DNA of 64,000 nucleotides from a virus (IMGVR_UViG_3300047561_001970:21100-85099), one strand, 5' to 3'. Counted from the stretch's first letter, positions 4,397 to 50,820 are shown. Numbers and translations: made by a program. The notes: generated by a model from the letters alone, not told the origin.

Positions 4397-5775
4397 TGAA
4401 TTTATCTAATACACTATATTCTTTTAAAGAACAAGAAAAGCGATTTGGCGCACCAAAAGCGGTTCCTGTGCAAGGTGGATCATCCACAGGCGGTGCAAAT
4501 TGCATAGGCGACACTGCAACAGGATTTTCTCTATATGATGTTATCAATGATTTTCAATGGACAACCTCTCCTGCTGAAAGTAAAGTTGGCGTTCCCGAGA
4601 TTTTCTTAAAAGAAAAAAGATTGATTACTAATTCCTTTGTTGCACAGGCTGCCTACTATACATACGCGTTGCAAGAATCTACTGCAGATGCAACCACCTT
4701 TGTTGCAAATTTTAAGGCAAAATTTGGTACCCTCGCTGGCACAGCTCTAGATGCAGCATTAGGCGCTGCCATAACAAATCAACTTGGTGGTAGGCAAATA
4801 TCACAAGCAGTGGGCAAGGGCGCTAGTCTATCGCCACAGCTAGCTGCATATTCTAGTATTATTCAGGCAGGCACTCAGGCTGCAGGAGGGGCTGTTGGTG
4901 CAAGTATAGGTGGCGCAGGAGTTCTTAATAATCTAAGTCGACTGGCGGGGGGTGCTTTGGATATTGCGCAAACTGCTGGAGCAAACCTAAATGTTGAGAG
5001 TTTAAATAGCAAATACTTGCTACCATATGAGGGGCTATATTTAACGGAGGATACACAATTTTATTATAGATTTCCATACTTTGTTAACAACTTGAATGAC
5101 ATTAGTAACAAATTTAGTAACACACCAAATCTCAATCCTGCAGAAATAGGTGGCCCAGCTGGATCATTCTATGGCTTATCTGAAGGTCTGGGAGCTGCTG
5201 CAATGACTGTAGCTGCTAATGCAAACTTAAATGCACCTGGGGTATATATAGAAAAACCAAAATTTTATAATTTTAGTGAAGATGGTGAAGCTTTAGTATT
5301 TAAATTCCCTCTTGTTAACACTGGATGGGCAACTTACACAGACGTATTACGCAATTGGCAATTGCTGTATTTACTAGCCTATCAAAATAGACCCAATCGA
5401 CGAAGCAGAGATTTAATTGATCCACCTGTAATTTATGAGGTTAGTATTCCGGGTTCTCGTTATTATCCCTACGCTTACATCGAGACTATGAAAGTTGCGT
5501 TTGTTGGGTCTGTAAGGAAGATGTTGATTGATGTTCCATATGGCACCAGCACAATAAAGATTGAATCCATCATACCAGATGCTTATGATGTGACGATAAC
5601 TCTGAGAGCCTTGGTGAGAGAATCGCAGAATTTCCTGTATTCTATGCTATACGACAAATATAACATTATTTCAACTTCATCAACTAGAACTTTGCAAGAA
5701 ACACAAGATATAATTGGGGTGCCTAAAGAATTTACTGGTGTTGGTGGTGTATTTAGACAGGGAGCAGCACAATGA
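4396..5775 (+). CDS. Baseplate tail-tube junction protein (gp48-like) with Gly/Ala-rich insert
   Basis: C-terminal FKFPL.NT, NRP.R..R.LIDPPVIYEVSIPG...P.AYI..M.V.F, IP.AY.VTITL pattern of the gp48 family. Confidence 0.6.
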   Translation: MNLSNTLYSFKEQEKRFGAPKAVPVQGGSSTGGANCIGDTATGFSLYDVINDFQWTTSPAESKVGVPEIFLKEKRLITNSFVAQAAYYTYALQESTADATTFVANFKAKFGTLAGTALDAALGAAITNQLGGRQISQAVGKGASLSPQLAAYSSIIQAGTQAAGGAVGASIGGAGVLNNLSRLAGGALDIAQTAGANLNVESLNSKYLLPYEGLYLTEDTQFYYRFPYFVNNLNDISNKFSNTPNLNPAEIGGPAGSFYGLSEGLGAAAMTVAANANLNAPGVYIEKPKFYNFSEDGEALVFKFPLVNTGWATYTDVLRNWQLLYLLAYQNRPNRRSRDLIDPPVIYEVSIPGSRYYPYAYIETMKVAFVGSVRKMLIDVPYGTSTIKIESIIPDAYDVTITLRALVRESQNFLYSMLYDKYNIISTSSTRTLQETQDIIGVPKEFTGVGGVFRQGAAQ

Positions 5776-11044: not shown

Positions 11045-11083
11045 TATTTATGTTCTTATAGAACAATTATCCTTATATAAATA
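11045..11083. promoter_or_regulatory. Back-to-back divergent late promoters (minus CATAAATA 11052-11045; plus TATAAATA 11076-11083)
   Basis: The boxes are 6 and 5 nt from their start codons; a small palindrome TGTTCT-TAT-AGAACA (11051-11065) lies between them. Confidence 0.7.
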
Positions 11084-37457: not shown

Positions 37458-38930
37458 ATGAAATCAATCAGACCGACAACGGCCTATATTGATGAGTCTC
37501 GCGCCAAAGCGTTGCTCGAAAAGTGGAAGCCAGTTTTGGATTACACTTCAGACAACGTCAGGCCCATTGAAGACGATCACACTCGCTTAAATACAGCTAT
37601 GCTCTTGGAAAACCAAGAGTCCTGGTGTATTGGCGAAGCGAACGTTGCCGGTGGAACAGGCTCGGTATTCGGTGGTTCATACAGTGGTACAGGTGGAATG
37701 GGTGGCCAAGGCGGTGCTTTTGGCAACGCGTCCCCCCAAGGCGACTGGTATGCAACTGGCGATTCCCGCTTGCCCAAGATACTCATCCCAATGATTCGTA
37801 GAACGTTCCCCGAGCTAATCACCAATGAAATTGTAGGCGTACAGCCCATGGGCGGACCAGTAGGTCTTGCCTTTGCTTTACGTTATAAGTATTCCGCTAA
37901 CCAGCTAGGTAATGATGGCGTCGACGGTTCCGGCACAAATGCCGGTGCCGCTCTCGGCAGCCCTCAATCCGCCGCTGCAGGCAAAGAACTTGGCTACCAG
38001 TATCTCGATACCCGTTACACGGGCACATCGAGCTCTAAACTCTCCGGTGGCGATGCCTTGGCAGCCTCTCTCTTCCCCTCAATCGGGGCAGATCAGGGCG
38101 TTGCTCAGGTCCTCGCTAACTTCGAATTGACGGGTAAAATCCCTCAGATCGAAGTTTCGTTTGAAAAAACGGCCGTCGAAGCTGGTACTCGTAGACTTGC
38201 TGCACGCTGGTCTGTGGAACTCGAACAGGATCTTAAGAACATGAATGGCATCGATATCGATACCGAACTCACCAACGCTATGTCGTATGAGTTGCAGGCC
38301 GAAATCGATCGCGAAATGATTGTTCGTATGATCCAAGTTTCGCTGAATGCTGGAGCCGGTACAGGTTATTCTGTATGGTCCCCCGCTTCCGCGGATGGTC
38401 GCTGGTTAGTAGAGCGCAATCGCGACTTCTACCAACGTTTGATCATCGAGGCTAACAGAATCGCAGTTCGTAACCGTCGTGGTGCTGCCAACTTTATAGT
38501 TGCAACACCTCGCGTTTGCGCGATTCTCGAGATGCTTCCTGAGTTTCAATGGGTGCCCGTCCAAGGCAATGTCAACACTCAACCTGTTGGCGTAGCCAAG
38601 GTAGGCAACCTAGGTGGTCGTTTCAACGTATACCGTGATACACGCACAGAAGCCCAATATGAGGGTGGATTGCGTGGTACGCGCGTAGAGTACGCCCTAT
38701 TGGGCTACAAAGGACCAGAGTTTTATGACACTGGTATCATCTACTGCCCGTACATCCCGGTTATGGTACAACGTACAATTGGCCCCAATGACTTCAGCCC
38801 CCGTGTTGGTCTTCTGACCCGCTACGGTGTTGTTGATAACATCTTTGGCGCTAACTTGTATTATCATACCATCTTGTTGAGCGGTCTCGGTCAAGCGTTC
38901 ACGCCCGGTACACAATCTGTGTACTTCTAA
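37458..38930 (+). CDS. Major capsid protein (T4 gp23-like)
   Basis: L.EKW.PVL, TA.LLENQE, ILIP.IRR..P.LI..EIVGVQPM.GP.GL.FALR..Y, R.L.A.WS.EL.QDLK..GID...EL.N.MS.E...EI.RE, G.L.GR..VY.D, YCPY.P. Confidence 0.98.
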   Translation: MKSIRPTTAYIDESRAKALLEKWKPVLDYTSDNVRPIEDDHTRLNTAMLLENQESWCIGEANVAGGTGSVFGGSYSGTGGMGGQGGAFGNASPQGDWYATGDSRLPKILIPMIRRTFPELITNEIVGVQPMGGPVGLAFALRYKYSANQLGNDGVDGSGTNAGAALGSPQSAAAGKELGYQYLDTRYTGTSSSKLSGGDALAASLFPSIGADQGVAQVLANFELTGKIPQIEVSFEKTAVEAGTRRLAARWSVELEQDLKNMNGIDIDTELTNAMSYELQAEIDREMIVRMIQVSLNAGAGTGYSVWSPASADGRWLVERNRDFYQRLIIEANRIAVRNRRGAANFIVATPRVCAILEMLPEFQWVPVQGNVNTQPVGVAKVGNLGGRFNVYRDTRTEAQYEGGLRGTRVEYALLGYKGPEFYDTGIIYCPYIPVMVQRTIGPNDFSPRVGLLTRYGVVDNIFGANLYYHTILLSGLGQAFTPGTQSVYF

Positions 38931-39022: not shown

Positions 39023-39030
39023 TATAAATA
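39023..39030 (+). promoter_or_regulatory. Late promoter TATAAATA
   Basis: Perfect consensus, 4 nt before ATG 39035. Confidence 0.8.
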
Positions 39031-39034
39031 ACAT

Positions 39035-40120
39035 ATGGCCATAGTACCACTTTCTGACTTAAAAACTTCATTCTCATCTGGCCACATTCCAAGCTCCAAT
39101 GATTTTGCAAACTTAATTGACACCACCAGCGCTCTACCCTCAGGTGGTATCATTGGTTCAGTATACACAACAAACTTGACGCTAGTGCAAGGCGCGACCG
39201 GGATCCCCGTGATTATAGGTGGTAATACCTATTATCTGCCTGTGTTCACCACAGTCACTGCACCTTCACCAAACCAAACAGCATACACCACCACAGTGAG
39301 ACAAACATATCCAAATGCAATGCTGGCAGAAACTGTGGGTGCAAGATGTGCCACAGTCATACAGAGTCTGTGTGGTTATGCACCAGGTGATGTGATTGCA
39401 GCAGCTTGCATATGCTCAGATGATAAAAATGCTCCCATTTTCCCCAACAACACATTTGGTCAATACCCCACATCTTTGCAACAATTTTCTGGGCCATTCT
39501 TCGCAGGTGGCATTGGTGGTTATCCTTTCCCAGGCATTGTGGGGCTGTTTGCATGGATGAGCCATGTGACCACACCTGGTGCATTGTTCATATATGTGCA
39601 CCCACACATTGGCATCACTCAGAGTGGTCAGGTGGGGTTCATGAAGCGCCGAGGTCAACAAGGCAATCTGGATCGAACATGTGGTGCTGTGAATGCAGCA
39701 CAAGCCAGAATTGTGGGTACACTGAGTGCAACAGCACCTGTATTCCCAAGTGCAGAATTTACTGTTAATGATTTTCAACAATATACTCTGGTGAATGCAC
39801 TGTATTCCAACAAAACCACACGCAATGCACTCACAGCAGCTGCACCAGTGCAAGGTGGCACATATGCCCAGAGAATGAAGATAGCTACTGATGCTATTCT
39901 GGTTGCAGCATTGAGTGCAGTGGAAACAATTTTGCCCATATCTTATGGTGCCTTCTTCCAGGGTGAAAACACAGTGGATGTGTTTGTGCATGCAGGCACA
40001 TTCATCAATGTGGATGATGGTTACAGTGCTTACATAGACACCATTGCATTCAAGAAATACAATCCAGTCACACAGACATTCACCACCCTCACCAATGCTT
40101 TCACAGCAGCTTTTGTTTGA
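39035..40120 (+). CDS. LCIB-family (theta-class) carbonic anhydrase-like domain fused to an N-terminal virion-anchor-like segment
   Basis: CICSDD...GPFFAGGIGGYPFPG..GL.A...H...GALFIY..PHIGIT..G.VG...R.GQ.....TCGAV gives the Cys/His/Cys Zn-ligand arrangement of the LCIB/theta-CA family. Confidence 0.8.
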   Translation: MAIVPLSDLKTSFSSGHIPSSNDFANLIDTTSALPSGGIIGSVYTTNLTLVQGATGIPVIIGGNTYYLPVFTTVTAPSPNQTAYTTTVRQTYPNAMLAETVGARCATVIQSLCGYAPGDVIAAACICSDDKNAPIFPNNTFGQYPTSLQQFSGPFFAGGIGGYPFPGIVGLFAWMSHVTTPGALFIYVHPHIGITQSGQVGFMKRRGQQGNLDRTCGAVNAAQARIVGTLSATAPVFPSAEFTVNDFQQYTLVNALYSNKTTRNALTAAAPVQGGTYAQRMKIATDAILVAALSAVETILPISYGAFFQGENTVDVFVHAGTFINVDDGYSAYIDTIAFKKYNPVTQTFTTLTNAFTAAFV

Positions 40121-40135
40121 TACAGTTCAAACAAA
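40112..40135. other. AT-rich hairpin TTTGTTTGA-TACAGT-TCAAACAAA covering the stop codon, between convergent units
   Basis: Perfect 9-bp inverted repeat; possible terminator or RNA end-protecting stem. Confidence 0.5.
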
Positions 40136-40178
40136 TAAACTTATTTAATGCTTCACCCTCGCACCGTATACGGCGCAG

Positions 40179-40379
40179 CATTTTGCACCTGATGTCACCA
40201 CCAGGATTGGACTATATCTTCACATGTTTGTGCTGCTTGTTCGTGCTGGTTATTAAGGATTCCTGTTCCTCCAGTAGTCTCTACACCTTCCAGAGAAGCG
40301 TCTCTGGCTTGGCTCGGGATTGTCTCCACAGGAGAGTTTCCCCGAATTAAAGCAGTAGGGGCCATTGTTTCAAAGATCT
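40179..40379 (-). ncRNA. Group I ribozyme/intron core (P3-P9, IA-like with P7.1 insertion); no host gene or homing endonuclease evident
   Basis: Minus strand: P3 CUGCUU(40355-50)/AAGCAG(40238-33); P4 UUCGGGG/UCCCGAG; J4/5 AAA and J5/4 CAA; P5 UCUCC-UGU-GGAGA; P6a CCAGAGA-CGCU-UCUCUGG; R element GAAGGUGUAGAGACUA; P7 G(A)GACUA(40281-75)/UAGUCC(40214-09); P7.1 CUGG/CCAG with inner AGGA/UCCU; P8 CACA/UGUG; S element AAGAUAUAGUCC; P9 CCUGGUG-GUGA-CAUCAGG (GNRA loop). Ends are approximate. Confidence 0.88.
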
Positions 40380-40384
40380 GATAA

Positions 40385-40392
40385 TATTTATA
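40385..40392 (-). promoter_or_regulatory. Late promoter TATAAATA immediately upstream of the group I RNA
   Basis: Perfect consensus on the minus strand, overlapping the TAA stop of 40388-41410. Confidence 0.65.
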
Positions 40393-41410
40393 CATAAACA
40401 TACAAAGAATGTAAGTACCCTAAACCTAATCCGTCACCAGACACATGCACAGGTCCTGCACTCTTATATCTACCATGGTACTTAGCTGGTTTAAAATATT
40501 GTCCATCAGGGTATGTTACTGGATTAAAAGTCCAGCGATAAGCAGGCATAATGCTTGCATCTTGCAGTTTGTTGCTGTTGGTTTCAAAGGTTTCTGCCCC
40601 CCACATTATTCCTGTTCCTGAAGCTGGAATAGTAAAAAACCCTACTTGCCATTTATTAATGGCCATGTTGAACAATATGGTACCATCAAATGCCAGTACC
40701 CCACCTGTACTAGTTAACTGATATACTGGACCAAAATTATTACCATTGGCATCTGTATAGGAATCAGCTTTTTTAAAATATTCACCTTCAAATGTGCCAC
40801 CATCAGGCCCACCAGTTGTTAAGAAACCTTCTTGTGTAACAGTTTGTCTTCCTTGTTGTGGTCTCAATTGCCTGGATCCCCACATGCACCAGCTTATGAT
40901 CAACCTAGCAGAACATGTCAAAGGCCGTGTAGAGCCTGTGCGATTTTTAATCCAAGCAGTTAAACTGGATTTGAATGCTGCACTGTTGTATTTGCTGTCA
41001 TTGATAATTTTTGTGAATTTAAAATTAGGGTATGAATAAAAAAGAGCTGCATCTGGCACATCTCTTATTCTTTTGATATTGTATGCTTGATGTCCGCTCA
41101 TAACATAATCTGTTGATGCATTAGCTGCCGATAAAGAAAAGCTGTGCATGGTTATGTATCTTTGAACCAGTCCTACTTTGCCACTTGTGGAGTATTTGGC
41201 ATCTAAATCACTATTTGCCTCACCACCATATCCATCATGTATCACATAACTATTGTTATAATATTCACTAATTTTTCCGCTATCTCTTGCTTGACCATCA
41301 TATGTTATGAGAAGTGGTCGGCTTCGAGGGTAATTTTGAGGAGTACTCACACCATCTACTACCGAAATGGAAGTCTTCACAAACTGACTGGGCTGAGTTG
41401 CAATCATCAT
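40388..41410 (-). CDS. Hypothetical virion-associated protein
   Basis: Last gene of the minus-strand fibre operon; start placed at ATG 41410 (ATGA overlap with the upstream stop); Gly/Thr/aromatic-rich beta composition. Confidence 0.6.
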   Translation of the reverse strand: MMIATQPSQFVKTSISVVDGVSTPQNYPRSRPLLITYDGQARDSGKISEYYNNSYVIHDGYGGEANSDLDAKYSTSGKVGLVQRYITMHSFSLSAANASTDYVMSGHQAYNIKRIRDVPDAALFYSYPNFKFTKIINDSKYNSAAFKSSLTAWIKNRTGSTRPLTCSARLIISWCMWGSRQLRPQQGRQTVTQEGFLTTGGPDGGTFEGEYFKKADSYTDANGNNFGPVYQLTSTGGVLAFDGTILFNMAINKWQVGFFTIPASGTGIMWGAETFETNSNKLQDASIMPAYRWTFNPVTYPDGQYFKPAKYHGRYKSAGPVHVSGDGLGLGYLHSLYVYV

Positions 41411-44232: not shown

Positions 44233-47200
44233 TCAGCACTCCACAGTCAAATGGGGTATGTCTTTTCTTATGGCAGTAAATGTCCAATAAAATTCATACT
44301 CCTGTCTATCCAGCCAATTTCTTTTTACACCTACAGAAAAGGTATTGCTGGGTACATCCACTCTTTTTACAAATAATACCTTATCGTGGTTTATGTTGGT
44401 CAGTTGTATGTTTGCATTGTCTGCATGCACCAGTGCGCTAATATAATCAGGCAATTGTATAATTACTTCATCCTGCTTGATGCATGATTTGCCAGTTAAG
44501 CGCACACCGTGGTATGGGGATTCTAGACTACCATATTGAAGCTTTTTGTCTGTGTGCAAGGGGTGATCAATTAAGAATGACTTGGTGCTTGCAGTAATGT
44601 GATTAAAGTATCCAATGCCTGATGCGCTGATATTACCCACCACTGTGAGTTTTTCGTTGGGTGTTATGGTGCCCATGCCAATGTTGCCATTGTCAATGAT
44701 GCGCATCACATTGCTGGTGCTAAATGTACCAAAATTGATATACCCTGTGAGTCCACTGCCCCCAGCTTTGATGCTAACGGAGTTTATGTTGTTTGAGAAT
44801 GTGCCAACATCAATGTTGCCAGTTGAGTCTTGATAATTAAAAATGGATCTCTGTTGACCATTGGATCTTCTCACATACATGCCTCCTGATGTGGCACCCC
44901 GGGTGAAGTCCATTATCAATGCTGCATCAGTAACTGTGTCAAATGCTGTGAAGGTGGATGGTGCACACACAATGCCCTGAGTGGTGCTCAGACTGCCAGT
45001 TACAGTTAAGTTGTTGTTGTTTGCCTCCAAAACATTGACCCGGCTTGTGTTGTTCGTTCCTGCGCCCACCACAAACAATGCATTATTGTTTGGGTTGTTG
45101 TATTTGCCTACAACAGCCTGGTATGGTGTGCTGCTTAATGAGATTAAACCTTCGCCACCTAATGCTACAGAATTATCACTGTAAACGGCATTGTAATCAC
45201 CAGCAAATGTACCGGATTTGTTCCCTAACACTGCTCCACGGAAGCCTAGACCATAAGAATAATTGCCATAAGATTCTGAATTTCCTAAAGAAACATTCTT
45301 GATCATTCCACCGCTCAGATAATTTGTGCCGTCAAAATACCAAGGCTCCCGTTCAAAGTAAAATCCTGTGGTACCGAAAGTGGGGCGATGCACTGTGTCT
45401 TGTGTGCCACCATACAATACCCAGCCGGCAGTGCCAGTAGCCTCTATGGGCCAGAACCTGTTTTCAAAGCTGTATGAATCCATCAAATTGCACAAAGCAA
45501 ATTCCATGTCTGTGCCGCTCACACTGATCACAAATGCATCAAAGTATCCAGTGCGCACACCACTGGGGAATGTGCCTTGTGCAAATGTAGCAATTTTATC
45601 GGATGTGATGAAGCCAGTGCCTATGGGAGATGTGGAAGGCATGGCAGTGGGTATCCACAGTGTCAAAGGAGAGCCAGGTTTGTATGCTGTGAGAATGTTG
45701 GCAGTAGTAAAACGAGCCAGTGCATGTTTGTTCATGCCCCTGTAACTGCCTGTGAGGCCCACATACTGTGTGCTGGGATTGGTACCAATTTGACTGGCAA
45801 TCAGACTCACACCTGGATTGCCTCCATTGGCACGAGATTTCAAATTGATGGCTTGTGTGCCACGTGAAGCTGGTACCCAATTGGTGCCAGAGCCAATGAA
45901 GAAATCAAATTTGTAAGCTGTTAATGTGCCAGTGGCATTGGAAGACACTTGGGTACATTGTGAATTGAAAGTGACTGCATTTAATCCTACCAGCCCAGGA
46001 TTCACCACAATGCCTACCACAGATCCAGGGGTGATGAGATTGTAATTAACTGGTGCAGAATATGCATCTAGCAGGATAACAACACCAGACAGTCTGTCTG
46101 TGCTGGTGATCAGGGTGGCATTTGTGGTGTCAATGATGCCACTGGTGGCTGTGATGGTGGTGCTGTCTTGATATTGTGGCAAGGTGTGCACCATGAATCG
46201 TTGTGTGTATGTGTTGGCACCATAACCATACACATTCAATGAACCACCATTGGTCATTTGCCATGATTGTGTGGGGTTGAAGGGTGCACCTTGCCATTGC
46301 ACGTGATTGTGATCTGCTCCCCCTGTGAAATTGTTGATGCCAGCACGAAATGCCATGGCATGGGTAACTGCTGCACGGCCATCACTGATGAGTGTACTGC
46401 CTGGATCCATGTCATTCACATTTTGCAGCCATAGACCATATGTACCATAACCAGGTAAATTTTGAATACTAGTGCTATAATCCGGGGAATGGCCTTTTAT
46501 AATAAAGCCACCGGGAGATGCAAATGTACCTTGAGAATTAAAATAACCAGAATTATTAGTGAGTGTAGAACTTAGTGTTGGGTAGGATGCATTTTTTACA
46601 AATGTAGCAAAGCTAGGAGAGAAGAGATTACCAGCAGTAGAAATGGTACCATAGAACGTGGCACTATTATTGACTGTTAGAGTTCCATTAATTGAGCTAT
46701 CACCAAGTGAGCTATAGCCTCGAGCAAAATATGCATCACTCAAAACACCCAAGTTACCTGCTATCGTAGCATTATTATCAACCAGTATAGATGTGGTCTC
46801 TATACTACCTGCTCTTAGATTCTGTACATATGCTCCCCCCAAATCATAGACGTTTATGGCATCCACTCCATTACTCAAATACATGTACCGGCCTTTAATT
46901 TGTGCAGATACCATCATATTGTATGACCCACCACCGGCAGATGTGATATACCTTATAACTTTAGGAGCATATGGATTACTGATGTCCATCACACACATAA
47001 CTTGAATGAATGGGCCGGCGCCAATCTGACATGGTATGTACAAATAATCTCCATCAATAATTGGCTCTGAGTATGCTGCTATGGAAGGTAGGCCTGCAAT
47101 TGTTGTTACCAATACTGGTGCACCTACCACACTGTACACTCTCAATGCATTTGAGTCACATACATAAGCAAAATTATTTTTAACAGCTAGGCCGTTCATT

Positions 47201-50200
47201 GAGCCAGAATACGAGGCAGTCCCTTTGCTTGTTGGTGTTCTAGGATCAGTTATATTCCACTTTTGCAGAACAGCTGTACCAAATGTATTGTATGCATAGT
47301 AGAGGTTTTGACCTTGCACAATGAGATTTCGTGGTGCAAGAGATCCATCAACTACACCAAACACTCGGACTGGAGCAACTGGGTTGCTGATGTCGTAAAC
47401 AGTTAATCTGCCTGGGCCGGGGTAGGAAGTCCCATAGGCAAGAGCGAACAAATAATTGCCCTGTATCTGTATGCTGCTGCCATTATCTGGGTGAGCTATG
47501 TAACCTGCTGATGCTATGGAATTGCTTGTTGTGTTGTATACACGTATGCCCTGACTTTCAGATACATACACATATGCACCACGCACTGCTAATGCATTTG
47601 TGCCACCATAGACACTTGATCCTATGGCTGCACTAGCCACAAGAGCAAGGGTGGTATCAGAGCCAGACAATACATATTGTTGGACAGAAAAAGGAGTATA
47701 CAAATACAAATAATTGTCTTGCATCCTTAGAGTAGTTGCGTATGATGTTACCGGTGTAGAGCTAATTTTTTTAATATTGCCTCTGACATCTAGAGGCGCA
47801 ATAGGTGTATTGGTATAAAATCCTGCGTATCCAGATATCGGCTCAACATACATACCAGACATGGCAGATACAGGTGTTGCAGTGGAAATACTATTTGCAT
47901 TGGGGCCTGCATACACCCCGCCAAGGTAAATAAAATTAGATGACAGGTAATCTAATGTGGTGTACCTCCCGCTAATGCTGTTATATGAATTGTACACACT
48001 GTTCCATTGATTGCTGTTGCCACCTGATGCTGTTATTTGCTTGTTTGCACTTATGGCACCATTGACTGTCAATTCCACAGCAGGGTAGCTTTCATTGATG
48101 CCAACCTTGCCACCCTGACCGGCATTGGCATTGCCTACATGCAGCACTTCCACACCGTCACCATCATAAAAACTGGCCACATCAGATGTACCAGCAGCTT
48201 GAAACACATACAAAGCAGGTCCTGGACCTGCGTTCACCACACTCAAAGCGCTGGTGGTAGTGAAGATGGTATTTTTAAATGTGCTGGTGCCGAGGGCAGT
48301 TAAGTTGCCATTAATGGTGACATTTTTACTGAATGTAGTGTTTTGATTGGTGTAAGCAATGTAGGCACTGCTCAATAGAAGAGTGCCAGAATCGTCAGGC
48401 AAACAAACTACCCTGCTTTGTGTTGCTGTTCCTAAGAGAGTGGTACGCGTGGTGTAATTGCCAAATTGTATTGTACCGCGTCCTCTTGTGTCAATGTAAC
48501 CACCACCATTTGATGTGTCAATAAACCCCCCATCACCCAAGTAAGCAGCGGCTGTGTTAATGTACCCACCTGCACCATCATCATTTCCCACTGTGTTAAT
48601 AAACCCACCAGCATGTATGCCATCGCTATGTGTATCAATGAAACCACCATTTTTTGAAGTGTCAATGTATCCGCCCGGTCCTTCAATTGTCCCATGAGTA
48701 TCAATATACCCCCCTGTATAATCAATATTATAACCTGTTGTTTGAATATACCCACCATATCCAGAGGTATCTATGTACCCGCCAACACTTGAAGTATTAA
48801 TATATCCTCCTTGGCCAGCAGCGCCAGAAGTATTGATTGAACCCCCGGCTCCTTCACCTTCCACCCCCCGGGTATCAATATAACCACCAGTTTCCGTCTC
48901 ACCATCTGCAGATGTGTTTATGAAACCACCTGGTAGGAGACCACCATTGCCACCAAATGTGTCAATAGAGCCACCACCATTAGATGTATTGATGTGTCCT
49001 CCGTTAGCACCACCAGCAGAGGTGTTTATATAACCTGCAACCAAGCCACTTCCAGCAGGTGCACTCACATTTATATCTGCCCCACCGTATGAGGTATTTA
49101 ACGATCCAGCTGATCCTTCATCGCCACCATACATGTTTATTGATCCAGCCCCACCAGTACCATCTGAACCTAAGTTTATACTGCCACCAATATTCGAAGT
49201 ATTAATATATCCACCCTCATTCGAAGTATTAATAGATCCACCCTCAGTCGAAGTATTAATAGATCCACCCACATTCGAAGTATTAATACTTCCACCAGCA
49301 TTTGACATATTCAAAGTTCCGCCTGGACTACTGCCACCCCCACCACCTGTAGATATTATAGACCCACCAGGACTTCCATCCGCAGCACCAGCACTCAAAT
49401 CAATAGACCCACCGCCAGCTAAATTACCAGAATCATCAACTAAAGACCCTTGAAGATTGATTGAGCCACCATTGCCAAAATGACTACTTGTATTAATAGA
49501 TCCGCCTGTACCAAATGCCCCACCAGAGGTGTTTATTGAACCGCCATTATAGCCACCCCCACCACCTTGCGTATTGATTGACCCGCCATAAGTGCTGGTA
49601 TCGATCGCGCCACCCATATCTGAAGTGTTAATTGAACCGCCAGTACCATTATTACCAGCAGAAGTGTTTATTGACCCGCCAGCACCATTTGCGTTACCCG
49701 AAAGATTTAGCAAACCACCACCATTAGAGGTGTTTATTGACCCACCAGGTCCATCACCTCCACCAGATGTATCTATAGAACCACCATACCAAGCATCGCC
49801 AATACTAGCTAGGCCAGAAGTGTTGATTGAGCCTCCATAAGCTCCAAACGCACCCCCGCCTTTCATAGTCAATGAACCACCATTGCTCAAGGCACCGGAT
49901 AAATCTATGCTACCTCCATGACCTCCATCTGGCGCGCCAGCACTTGTGTTGATGTTGCCTGCGTTTGCAACATTATCACCATCTGTAGAACCAGTCATAG
50001 TAATAGATCCACCTTTAGCCCCACCAGAGTCAAGTGTGTTTAAAGAATAACCATTTGGATTAGTATTATTTGGAAGAACAAGGGGGTTAGTTAGCCCACC
50101 GCCACCACCTGTACCAAAGTAATTGGATATGTCTCTGCCACCAGATAATATGTGACCATTTATATTCAGATCACCATTCATGACTCCACCATTGGCATAT

Positions 50201-50820
50201 TGCACAGCCACTGAACCACCCCCACCTCCCAGGTCCAGAATCTTGCGTGAATAATCATACACTGCTTTGTCAATGTATTCCTTGAGCTCTTCCAGTGTGG
50301 TTTTGGCTTCTTTCTGCTGCTTGACAGTTCCTGTGTCTTTAATTTTTTCCAATTCATCAATATATGAAGTTATTTGCTTGTCTGCAGGCTCCTCCAGCTC
50401 AGAAGCTGTTGATATGTTGGTGACTTCTTCCTGCTCCATTGCACTGGAATGTTGTGCTTTGAGTTTTGCCTTTTCAATTGCATCTTTTATTTTCTGTGCC
50501 AAATCTTTCACAGGTTGGTCTGTCTCCACTGTGGTGATTGGCTCAGATTGTGTGATGATGGGGCTTATTTCCTGTATTATAGTTTGGTTGACTATAACCT
50601 GCTCTGTGGACACGACAGGTTCCTTGAATGGTAGTTTTGCAGATATGGTATTACCAATTTTATTCAAAAAGCTAGCAAACGGATCCTCTTGTTCCTTAAC
50701 TATTTCCGTAGCGGAAGCAGAAGCATACACAGCCTCCATTATATGTTTATGATCTTTAGCAACTTGAATTTTTTTTGCTAAATTACCAATAAAGTTTGAT
50801 AAAGGGTCTTCGGCGGGCAC
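44233..50820 (-). CDS. 2195-aa long tail fibre/adhesin: acidic N-terminus, about 40 GG(S/Y/F)I(N/D)T repeats, LVIVD-type propeller, YadA-head-like segment, C-terminal chaperone-like domain
   Basis: GTG start 4 nt after ATTAAATA (50832-50825). LTVYDISNP..P, ..GNYL.., VMDISNPY.P (LVIVD); NSVALGG; IG.GT..P..KL.V.GNISASG; C-terminal KSFLIDHP....K.L.YGSLESPYHGVRL.G. Confidence 0.8.
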   Translation of the reverse strand: MPAEDPLSNFIGNLAKKIQVAKDHKHIMEAVYASASATEIVKEQEDPFASFLNKIGNTISAKLPFKEPVVSTEQVIVNQTIIQEISPIITQSEPITTVETDQPVKDLAQKIKDAIEKAKLKAQHSSAMEQEEVTNISTASELEEPADKQITSYIDELEKIKDTGTVKQQKEAKTTLEELKEYIDKAVYDYSRKILDLGGGGGSVAVQYANGGVMNGDLNINGHILSGGRDISNYFGTGGGGGLTNPLVLPNNTNPNGYSLNTLDSGGAKGGSITMTGSTDGDNVANAGNINTSAGAPDGGHGGSIDLSGALSNGGSLTMKGGGAFGAYGGSINTSGLASIGDAWYGGSIDTSGGGDGPGGSINTSNGGGLLNLSGNANGAGGSINTSAGNNGTGGSINTSDMGGAIDTSTYGGSINTQGGGGGYNGGSINTSGGAFGTGGSINTSSHFGNGGSINLQGSLVDDSGNLAGGGSIDLSAGAADGSPGGSIISTGGGGGSSPGGTLNMSNAGGSINTSNVGGSINTSTEGGSINTSNEGGYINTSNIGGSINLGSDGTGGAGSINMYGGDEGSAGSLNTSYGGADINVSAPAGSGLVAGYINTSAGGANGGHINTSNGGGSIDTFGGNGGLLPGGFINTSADGETETGGYIDTRGVEGEGAGGSINTSGAAGQGGYINTSSVGGYIDTSGYGGYIQTTGYNIDYTGGYIDTHGTIEGPGGYIDTSKNGGFIDTHSDGIHAGGFINTVGNDDGAGGYINTAAAYLGDGGFIDTSNGGGYIDTRGRGTIQFGNYTTRTTLLGTATQSRVVCLPDDSGTLLLSSAYIAYTNQNTTFSKNVTINGNLTALGTSTFKNTIFTTTSALSVVNAGPGPALYVFQAAGTSDVASFYDGDGVEVLHVGNANAGQGGKVGINESYPAVELTVNGAISANKQITASGGNSNQWNSVYNSYNSISGRYTTLDYLSSNFIYLGGVYAGPNANSISTATPVSAMSGMYVEPISGYAGFYTNTPIAPLDVRGNIKKISSTPVTSYATTLRMQDNYLYLYTPFSVQQYVLSGSDTTLALVASAAIGSSVYGGTNALAVRGAYVYVSESQGIRVYNTTSNSIASAGYIAHPDNGSSIQIQGNYLFALAYGTSYPGPGRLTVYDISNPVAPVRVFGVVDGSLAPRNLIVQGQNLYYAYNTFGTAVLQKWNITDPRTPTSKGTASYSGSMNGLAVKNNFAYVCDSNALRVYSVVGAPVLVTTIAGLPSIAAYSEPIIDGDYLYIPCQIGAGPFIQVMCVMDISNPYAPKVIRYITSAGGGSYNMMVSAQIKGRYMYLSNGVDAINVYDLGGAYVQNLRAGSIETTSILVDNNATIAGNLGVLSDAYFARGYSSLGDSSINGTLTVNNSATFYGTISTAGNLFSPSFATFVKNASYPTLSSTLTNNSGYFNSQGTFASPGGFIIKGHSPDYSTSIQNLPGYGTYGLWLQNVNDMDPGSTLISDGRAAVTHAMAFRAGINNFTGGADHNHVQWQGAPFNPTQSWQMTNGGSLNVYGYGANTYTQRFMVHTLPQYQDSTTITATSGIIDTTNATLITSTDRLSGVVILLDAYSAPVNYNLITPGSVVGIVVNPGLVGLNAVTFNSQCTQVSSNATGTLTAYKFDFFIGSGTNWVPASRGTQAINLKSRANGGNPGVSLIASQIGTNPSTQYVGLTGSYRGMNKHALARFTTANILTAYKPGSPLTLWIPTAMPSTSPIGTGFITSDKIATFAQGTFPSGVRTGYFDAFVISVSGTDMEFALCNLMDSYSFENRFWPIEATGTAGWVLYGGTQDTVHRPTFGTTGFYFEREPWYFDGTNYLSGGMIKNVSLGNSESYGNYSYGLGFRGAVLGNKSGTFAGDYNAVYSDNSVALGGEGLISLSSTPYQAVVGKYNNPNNNALFVVGAGTNNTSRVNVLEANNNNLTVTGSLSTTQGIVCAPSTFTAFDTVTDAALIMDFTRGATSGGMYVRRSNGQQRSIFNYQDSTGNIDVGTFSNNINSVSIKAGGSGLTGYINFGTFSTSNVMRIIDNGNIGMGTITPNEKLTVVGNISASGIGYFNHITASTKSFLIDHPLHTDKKLQYGSLESPYHGVRLTGKSCIKQDEVIIQLPDYISALVHADNANIQLTNINHDKVLFVKRVDVPSNTFSVGVKRNWLDRQEYEFYWTFTAIRKDIPHLTVEC
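48480..50030 (-). repeat. In-frame array of about 40 degenerate GG(S/Y/F)I(N/D)T(S/x) repeats, including a 4 x 27-bp tandem at 49193-49300
   Basis: Counted by eye in the translation; DNA unit TTCGAAGTATTAATA(T/G)ATCCACCCTCA is repeated four times. Confidence 0.9.

Follow-up and report, generated by a model that had tools for sequence, protein, structure and literature searches.

To our knowledge, group I ribozymes of bacteria and their phages occur almost exclusively as introns that restore the gene they interrupt. Guanosine attack at the 5' splice site is the ordinary first step of their splicing. Clostridioides difficile carries a c-di-GMP-controlled group I ribozyme in a 5' leader, and in the lariat-capping ribozyme GIR1 the segment preceding P3 is said to pair with the segment following P9 (work attributed to Nielsen in 2005 and Meyer in 2014). 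Permuted intron-exon group I constructs were reportedly engineered by Puttaraju and Been in 1992.

The element described here lies on the minus strand of a 64,000-nt stretch of phage DNA (hereafter the window). It resembles the engineered constructs in that its predicted 3' splice site lies upstream of its predicted 5' splice site within an otherwise intact core, and the products expected are the same, i.e. a circle of the enclosed segment and two linear pieces. A helix joining the splice-site regions aids the second step in those constructs, and the natural closing stem of the phage element could do likewise; its predicted mode of action is also similar to the one-sided engineered "cis-splicing" design. 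Unlike these constructs, the phage element is natural, phage-encoded and conserved. Its break lies in the P1 loop (P2 loop in one type, see below) instead of P5, P6, P8 or P9.0, its enclosed segment is tiny (18-24 nt in four types) and non-coding, and the downstream piece is often a real mRNA. With GIR1 and the C. difficile ribozyme it shares the character of a group I-derived RNA that would act on an mRNA leader and restores no gene, but it displayed neither a branching signature nor a riboswitch, and its Rfam likeness was to RF00028 only.

Two natural systems come close. Permuted group II introns were reported in bacteria in 2021 (PMC8637638) and yielded circles in vitro. They have in common with the phage element naturally permuted domains, a location outside genes and RNA circles (predicted ones here) of unknown function; they belong to another ribozyme class with another chemistry. 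A permuted phage ribozyme would be the group I counterpart of these introns. The same source also describes, after Chi et al. (2019), a back-spliced giant group I intron in mushroom-coral mitochondria, likewise a group I ribozyme of natural origin whose splice sites come in permuted order. Back-splicing in the coral restores a coding message from misordered exons, whereas the phage element joins no coding exon and sits in a late operon. A full-text search of the literature found no natural permuted group I ribozyme for phages or bacteria.

Catalytic core and genomic setting

The window was taken from an 85-kb IMG/VR virus record. We place the source phage among deep-branching T4-like phages; its gp23-type major capsid gene (37458-38930, Pfam Gp23) displayed only about 35% identity to any cultured phage. 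A minus-strand block of tail-fibre type, comprising a 2195-aa protein, two Laminin_G_3 proteins, a 281-aa ORF and the 340-aa product of gene A, ends at the ribozyme. The gene-B-like tail-fibre domains of the window were located in the 2195-aa protein (44233-50820, minus strand), one region of which was 38% identical to residues 245-666 of the tail-fibre-like gene B found downstream of the ribozyme in relatives, a similarity that points to module shuffling around the ribozyme. The convergent gene on the plus strand (39035-40120, stop codon at 40118-40120) ends 27 nt from the ribozyme. It encodes a 361-aa protein with an LCIB-type beta-carbonic-anhydrase domain (PF18599, E = 4e-24), adjoins the capsid gene and has a TATAAATA box (39023-39030) 5 nt ahead of its start; such an enzyme is unusual cargo within a phage structural region.

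The initial annotation had proposed a complete group I core on the minus strand between these convergent genes, and this was borne out at that very position. Rfam family RF00028 matched positions 40188-40406 (minus strand) over model positions 1-253, i.e. the full length of the model, with 62.5 bits (E = 1.8e-13) against a gathering score of 50 bits. It was the sole gathering-level Rfam match in the 64-kb window, and a search at E values up to 1 found no weak match to families besides RF00028. All helices named in the annotation were located and their letters checked, namely P3 (40355-50/40238-33), P4 (40345-40/40319-14), P5 (40335-31/40327-23), P6a (40307-01/40296-90), P7 (40279-75/40214-10), P7.1 (40274-71/40249-46), P8 (40232-29/40224-21) and P9 (40205-199/40194-188), the last capped by a GUGA loop of the GNRA type. 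The core thus runs on the minus strand from P3 to P9 (40188-40355) in canonical order with a P7.1 insert, as RF00028, the coordinates and covariation concur.

An alignment of 17 sequences revealed that 29 of the 46 RNAalifold pairs kept pairing through double changes, with covariation in P3, P4, P6a, P7.1, P8 and P9. J8/7, the 3' strand of P7, J3/4 and the stretch from the 3' strand of P4 through P6 were invariant or nearly so among the same sequences; the invariant active-site segments lay outside the motifs used for searching. Relatives reached RF00028 scores of 55-78 bits. We regard the core as shown by these comparisons to be real and under selection. As the annotation had stated, no tRNA halves accompany it (the tRNA search of the window returned none), nor was there an endonuclease ORF at the element.

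Gene A (40388-41410, minus strand) is complete and uninterrupted, its stop codon occupying 40390-40388, where the upstream ORF had been annotated to end. A family search yielded no Pfam or PHROG match. Homologs of equal length were recorded in five metagenome clusters (45-69% identity), all of them sharing one 14-residue C-terminal peptide, and across the family (window and P0004-P0008) both the N- and the C-terminal peptides were almost invariant. Among the last nine codons, all five variable ones differed synonymously, including TTA/CTG leucine switches, and the stop was invariant. This synonymous-only variation indicates selection on the translated protein tail and not on RNA pairing. The same ribozyme followed a gene A homolog in five other contig families and was present on every gene A contig reaching far enough (62.7 and 67.2 bits for the ribozymes of L002, L004 and L005). 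At the DNA level, the coding sequence was divergent until about 45 nt before the gene A stop, after which very high conservation extended through the ribozyme, whose DNA was far better conserved than the flanking genes (45-69% protein identity). Gene A showed no homology to the upstream genes of the other contexts (hhalign probability 0.2%). The ORF upstream of one of these ribozymes (L061, type vi) displayed a related C-terminal peptide that overlaps a TATAAATA box.

A TATAAATA box of late-promoter type, perfect as annotated, lies at 40385-40392 (minus strand) and overlaps the gene A stop TAA (40390-40388). It was invariant in 6/6 type-i loci (those of the gene A family), including its non-coding last three bases. 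The total number of such boxes in the window was not above chance (8 versus 6.6 expected), but 6 or 7 of the 8 sit 5-35 nt upstream of same-strand start codons; placement and orientation, not count, therefore make it a plausible late promoter, from which transcription would start near 40379. An equally spaced box precedes the ribozymes of types v and vi. No minus-strand terminator was found after the element in the window. Several boxes elsewhere in the window (at 11076, 39023, 42259, 50841 and 61763) lie just 4-10 nt before a start codon, so that many late messages would be leaderless or nearly so, which matches the very short leaders that follow the predicted ribozyme cut in related phages.

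Guide, substrate strand and closing stem

Two invariant core motifs, used to scan contigs from viruses and metagenomes, retrieved 72 non-redundant loci. About 27 were ordinary introns in tRNA or ribonucleotide-reductase genes, with P1 and P2 upstream, and about 30 shared the layout of the window in six unrelated gene contexts. Type i corresponds to the gene A family of the window, type ii lies between a gene for a 385-aa protein and a phrog_5838 virion protein, and types iii, iv and vi, together with a type from a cultured phage (see below), are other contexts with the window layout; in type v the split is in the P2 loop. Small canonical phage introns of the same sequence family (L010, L016 and L033 in tRNA genes, L017 and L035 in ribonucleotide-reductase genes and the 3'-terminal L015) were near-identical to these elements in J6/7-P7-P7.1 and J8/7 and shared the A-rich linker before the terminal G; some (L015, L062) even displayed the same P1 letters, GGGU with GCCC, located upstream and accompanied by P2. 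The difference lies in the order of the parts: canonical introns interrupt a gene and carry the P1 substrate strand and P2 upstream of the guide, whereas in the window neither is upstream and the substrate strand is found 3' of P9.

Folds and pair counts place the internal guide GCCCC at 40358-40362 (minus strand), its wobble G at 40362 and its other end two bases before P3, with no P2 between. Upstream of the guide, the window displayed no P1 hairpin and no P2, and the type-i alignment held no conserved upstream partner. A mini hairpin of 4 bp (40370-40381, minus strand) is dispensable, as L006 is devoid of its 12 nt and keeps the remainder. The motif CAG(A/U)UCUUU was observed there (40380-40372) and after a promoter-like box in four types altogether (window, L004, L058, L061, L053, L056); it is the 5' strand of the split P2 in type v and merely a 4-bp mini hairpin in the window. 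The "P1" drawn by Rfam (40402-40385) was rejected, being an A-U hairpin with a reversed G-U pair and a 2-nt loop.

Past P9, an A-rich linker leads to a closing stem formed by AAUGCU (40177-40182) and AGCAUU (40147-40152, minus strand), i.e. 40182-77 with 40152-47, the 3' strand beginning two bases past the predicted cut. This stem occurred in all permuted loci and covaried freely, for instance by a C-G to U-A change among type-i loci. The candidate 3' and 5' splice sites enclose 24 nt (40155-40178), a length kept in all five type-i loci, and this segment contains a covarying 6-bp hairpin with a UAUA loop (40176-71/40166-61). A bulge on the 3' side of the closing stem exposes GGGU (40158-40155), the putative P1 substrate strand, which pairs with the guide.

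The initial annotation had seen no convincing P1 or P2, and for P1 this no longer holds since a cis partner is present 3' of the core. Pair counts over 26 non-redundant phage loci from the six gene contexts revealed an invariant U-G wobble (26/26; U40155-G40362 in the window). The second pair was formed in all 26 loci (24 G-C, 2 A-U), as was the third (always G-C), the fourth in 24 (22 G-C, 2 A-U) and the fifth in 17, with five pair types. Beyond the cut, the first base could pair with the base before the wobble G in 23/26 loci (14 C-G, 6 A-U, 1 G-C, 2 U-G). When partners were shuffled among loci, 0 of 20000 trials reached the observed P1 score, a test that overstates significance, given the relatedness of the loci and the part that complementarity played in choosing the substrate site. 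The RNAalifold consensus of the 17 sequences predicted the guide/GGGU helix unaided (columns 9-11 with 234-236; first pair 14 C-G and 2 U-A), and the same helix was the outermost one in the single-sequence minimum-energy fold of the window RNA. P1 of the window is itself short, consisting of only 4 bp followed by an A-C mismatch, with G-G past the cut, where relatives displayed 6-7 bp.

Type v offered a second arrangement. In L053 (minus orientation, ~4870-5170) and L056 (8800-9100), the whole P1 hairpin lies 3' of the core and the RNA ends form a terminal helix of 16-22 bp that corresponds to the split P2 (z = -5.2). A TATAAATA or AATAAATA box is found 5 nt before this helix and a U-rich run after it; the enclosed segment measures 75-85 nt. 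Type v looks like a stand-alone, self-contained RNA gene and provides independent evidence that permutation recurs in this ribozyme lineage.

The element thus comprises what defines a group I P1, i.e. a guide and a U-ended substrate with a U-G wobble, except that the substrate strand is 3' of the core. What defines a circular permutation, namely the same helices with the ends moved to a loop and the former ends joined, was observed for both the L1-type and the L2-type. What defines a group I intron was absent: gene A is complete, there is no tRNA, and instead of an upstream 5' splice site and a downstream omega-G, the sole conserved partner of the guide lies 3' of both P9 and the candidate omega-G. 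Read in this manner, the window element is not an intron. We estimate at roughly 60% the probability that it is a naturally circularly permuted group I ribozyme, broken in the P1 loop and cleaving in cis after U40155.

Predicted reaction and competing readings

Read-through of gene A transcription, or initiation at the TATAAATA box (40392-40385), would supply the RNA. Guide GCCCC and the bulged GGGU would then form P1 with the U40155-G40362 wobble, and exogenous guanosine or GTP bound in P7 would attack after U40155, cutting the transcript and adding a G to the downstream piece. A P1 with such a U-G wobble is where guanosine attack is expected, and we infer guanosine-dependent cleavage at this position.

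For a second step, the downstream piece would leave, the closing stem would open and G40179 would enter the G site; U40155 would then attack after G40179, closing 40178-40155 into a 24-nt circle. The odds of this back-splicing, in our estimate, fall somewhat short of even. The initial annotation had proposed a circularising RNA among other options, and G40179 as one of three omega-G candidates. Both ideas fit the permuted layout, with the candidate 3' splice site between 40179 and 40178. In favour of the second step, every permuted locus keeps a G after the A-rich linker, much as canonical relatives do at their 3' ends, and the closing stem places the two splice sites opposite each other, at a distance fixed within types. 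The choice of G40179 is less secure, given that it is base-paired in the closing stem and that G40186 and G40188 are alternatives, the Rfam alignment ending at G40188. As to P10, comparison by eye of the first bases after G40179 with the bases 5' of the guide found no consistent pairing (3 bp in one of two type-v loci). A segment of 18-24 nt is also sterically tight for the second step, and its sequence was not conserved, which argues against a sequence-specific function of the circle.

The initial annotation had favoured an exon-less ribozyme acting in trans in the manner of the L-21 form, i.e. a promoter-driven RNA that cleaves or trans-splices other RNAs ending in GGGU-like sequences. The position of the guide near the predicted 5' end of such an RNA agrees with this, as does the lack of a gene to process downstream of the element in the window and in L004. 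However, every locus carries a cis partner that co-varies with the guide (GCCC/GGGU, GUCC/GGAU, GCCU/AGGU, plus the pair past the cut), which would not be expected were the target elsewhere, and 4-5 nt of guide would confer almost no specificity in trans. Since a cis partner exists, no trans substrate is needed, and we consider trans action improbable. Still harder to credit is the other option considered in the annotation, an ordinary cis intron at the end of gene A that would swap the last residues for a short 3' exon. Its 5' exon was to end at 40417, and GGGU at 40420-40417 could indeed pair imperfectly with the guide, but this sequence was peculiar to the window: relatives have GGAU or GCUU there with an unchanged guide. 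The gene A codons and stop are moreover conserved in the manner described above, and the flanks proved not to be exonic across homologous phage loci, a same-strand ORF stopping 14-38 nt before the guide in 25/25 permuted loci with data, from all six contexts. Downstream of P9, no conserved reading frame was found; the region covaries as a hairpin and L006 displays a 1-nt indel in it, so that no 3' exon frame is kept. Such an intron is therefore scarcely credible, and the view that the ribozyme is free-standing and interrupts no gene was upheld by the protein-level conservation of the gene A C-terminus and stop. A related candidate, in which splicing would join gene A to the tail-fibre gene that follows it, was rejected on account of the conserved stop and C-terminal peptide and of two lineages that lack gene B.

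An RNA that folds but has no catalytic activity is the alternative we take most seriously, although it too seems unlikely. It could provide a nuclease-resistant 3' end for the gene A message, serve as a highly conserved stretch at which tail-fibre modules recombine, or be a selfish remnant that still spreads among phages. The conservation of ribozyme DNA far above that of the flanking genes is compatible with such roles, and so are the break in homology between the window and its relatives just past the element (~40134) and the weak P1 of the window. Yet the active-site segments are invariant or nearly so across contexts, and the U-G wobble, which is needed for chemistry and not for helix stability, was kept in 26/26 loci; the drift of helices by compensatory change further speaks for long-term selection, not recent spread. 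A lariat-capping (GIR1-like) or purely hydrolytic derivative would need no exogenous G to cleave 3' of the core, and would cap or trim the message downstream. The topology is the same, with a segment 5' of P3 paired 3' of P9 and a cut ahead of an mRNA, but the hallmarks of lariat capping (its own covariance model, an omega-G and a three-base lariat fold after a P10-type helix) were missing: besides RF00028, Rfam returned nothing at E values up to 1, and the base after the helix was not a conserved G (C in 14, A in 7, G in 3 and U in 2 of the 26 loci). The invariant U-G wobble, for its part, marks a 5' splice site attacked by guanosine and not a branching site. We hold this derivative to be very improbable.

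Gene contexts and possible role

If the window element is a permuted, cis-cleaving ribozyme, its relatives suggest what the cut may serve. In these, a large tail-fibre or virion gene begins 3-19 nt past the predicted cut: the distance is 19 nt for the tail-fibre-like gene B of type-i relatives and 3-13 nt for the virion gene of type ii. In several type-ii loci (L018 2460-2475, L087, L067, L083 and L071), the start codon or the first codons of the virion gene overlap with the 3' strand of the closing stem, which covaries with its partner strand, so that the folded ribozyme should block translation initiation for as long as the transcript is uncut. Cleavage would process or unmask a late message, and ribozyme-driven release or unmasking is the likely role in relatives. 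As a general explanation, the idea that GGGU is the Shine-Dalgarno sequence of the next gene, masked by the guide, was discarded, its spacing to the ATG being 3-19 nt or more and many loci having no gene there.

The window differs in that its homology to L002 and L007 ends at ~40134, exactly at the ATG of their gene B, leaving a putative leader remnant of a lost gene B at 40134-40146 (minus strand, alignment columns ~335-352). In the window and in L004/L005, no same-strand gene follows the element, which means that the processing of a message cannot account for its role entirely. With its downstream gene lost, the window element would do no more than set an RNA end and, possibly, yield a small circle.

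A conserved, gene-free family with reversed splice sites would, if real, mean that phages use group I chemistry to cut messages and perhaps to make circles. Whether the family performs both transesterifications in vivo, giving circles of 18-85 nt and messages that begin, 3-19 nt ahead of the start codon, with the guanosine used in the attack, is a more tentative proposition, and we lean against it. Should it hold, the new message 5' end would carry a triphosphate when GTP is used, the output of tail-fibre or virion protein would depend on ribozyme activity and on the pool of guanosine nucleotides, and the window copy would stand alone, its late promoter driving an RNA that yields a 24-nt circle. 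A family of this kind would also represent, in natural form, the layout on which the manufacture of circular RNA relies, and its permutation points in the P1 and P2 loops and its closing-stem arrangement could be copied by engineers for very small circles.

One of the contexts was found in a cultured virus, Flavobacterium phage immuto (MW353175 ~145,034-145,272, RF00028 76.9 bits), which makes the prediction directly testable. The ribozyme is followed there by a terminator-like stem-loop and U run. An annotated 44-aa hypothetical protein, immuto26A_226 (MW353175 145086-145220; L041 2497-2631), lies wholly within the ribozyme core and is probably not a gene. Gene callers also proposed ORFs of 72-86 aa from an ATG overlapping the guide, which were dismissed since L004 has lost 2 nt in L5 and gained 2 nt in P8; more generally, a coding ORF inside the ribozyme was rejected as substitutions track base pairing and not codons.

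Two type-ii ribozymes, L018 and L071, occurred in one phage genome (IMG/VR contig 3300007214_000017, 148,804 bp), each preceding a different virion-type gene of 900-1100 aa. In L023 and L026, the 3' end of one group I ribozyme (J8/7, P7, P9) immediately precedes a second one, some 120-170 nt upstream of the core motif; the second ribozyme contains an ORF in its P8 region, and the arrangement may reflect tandem or nested group I elements.
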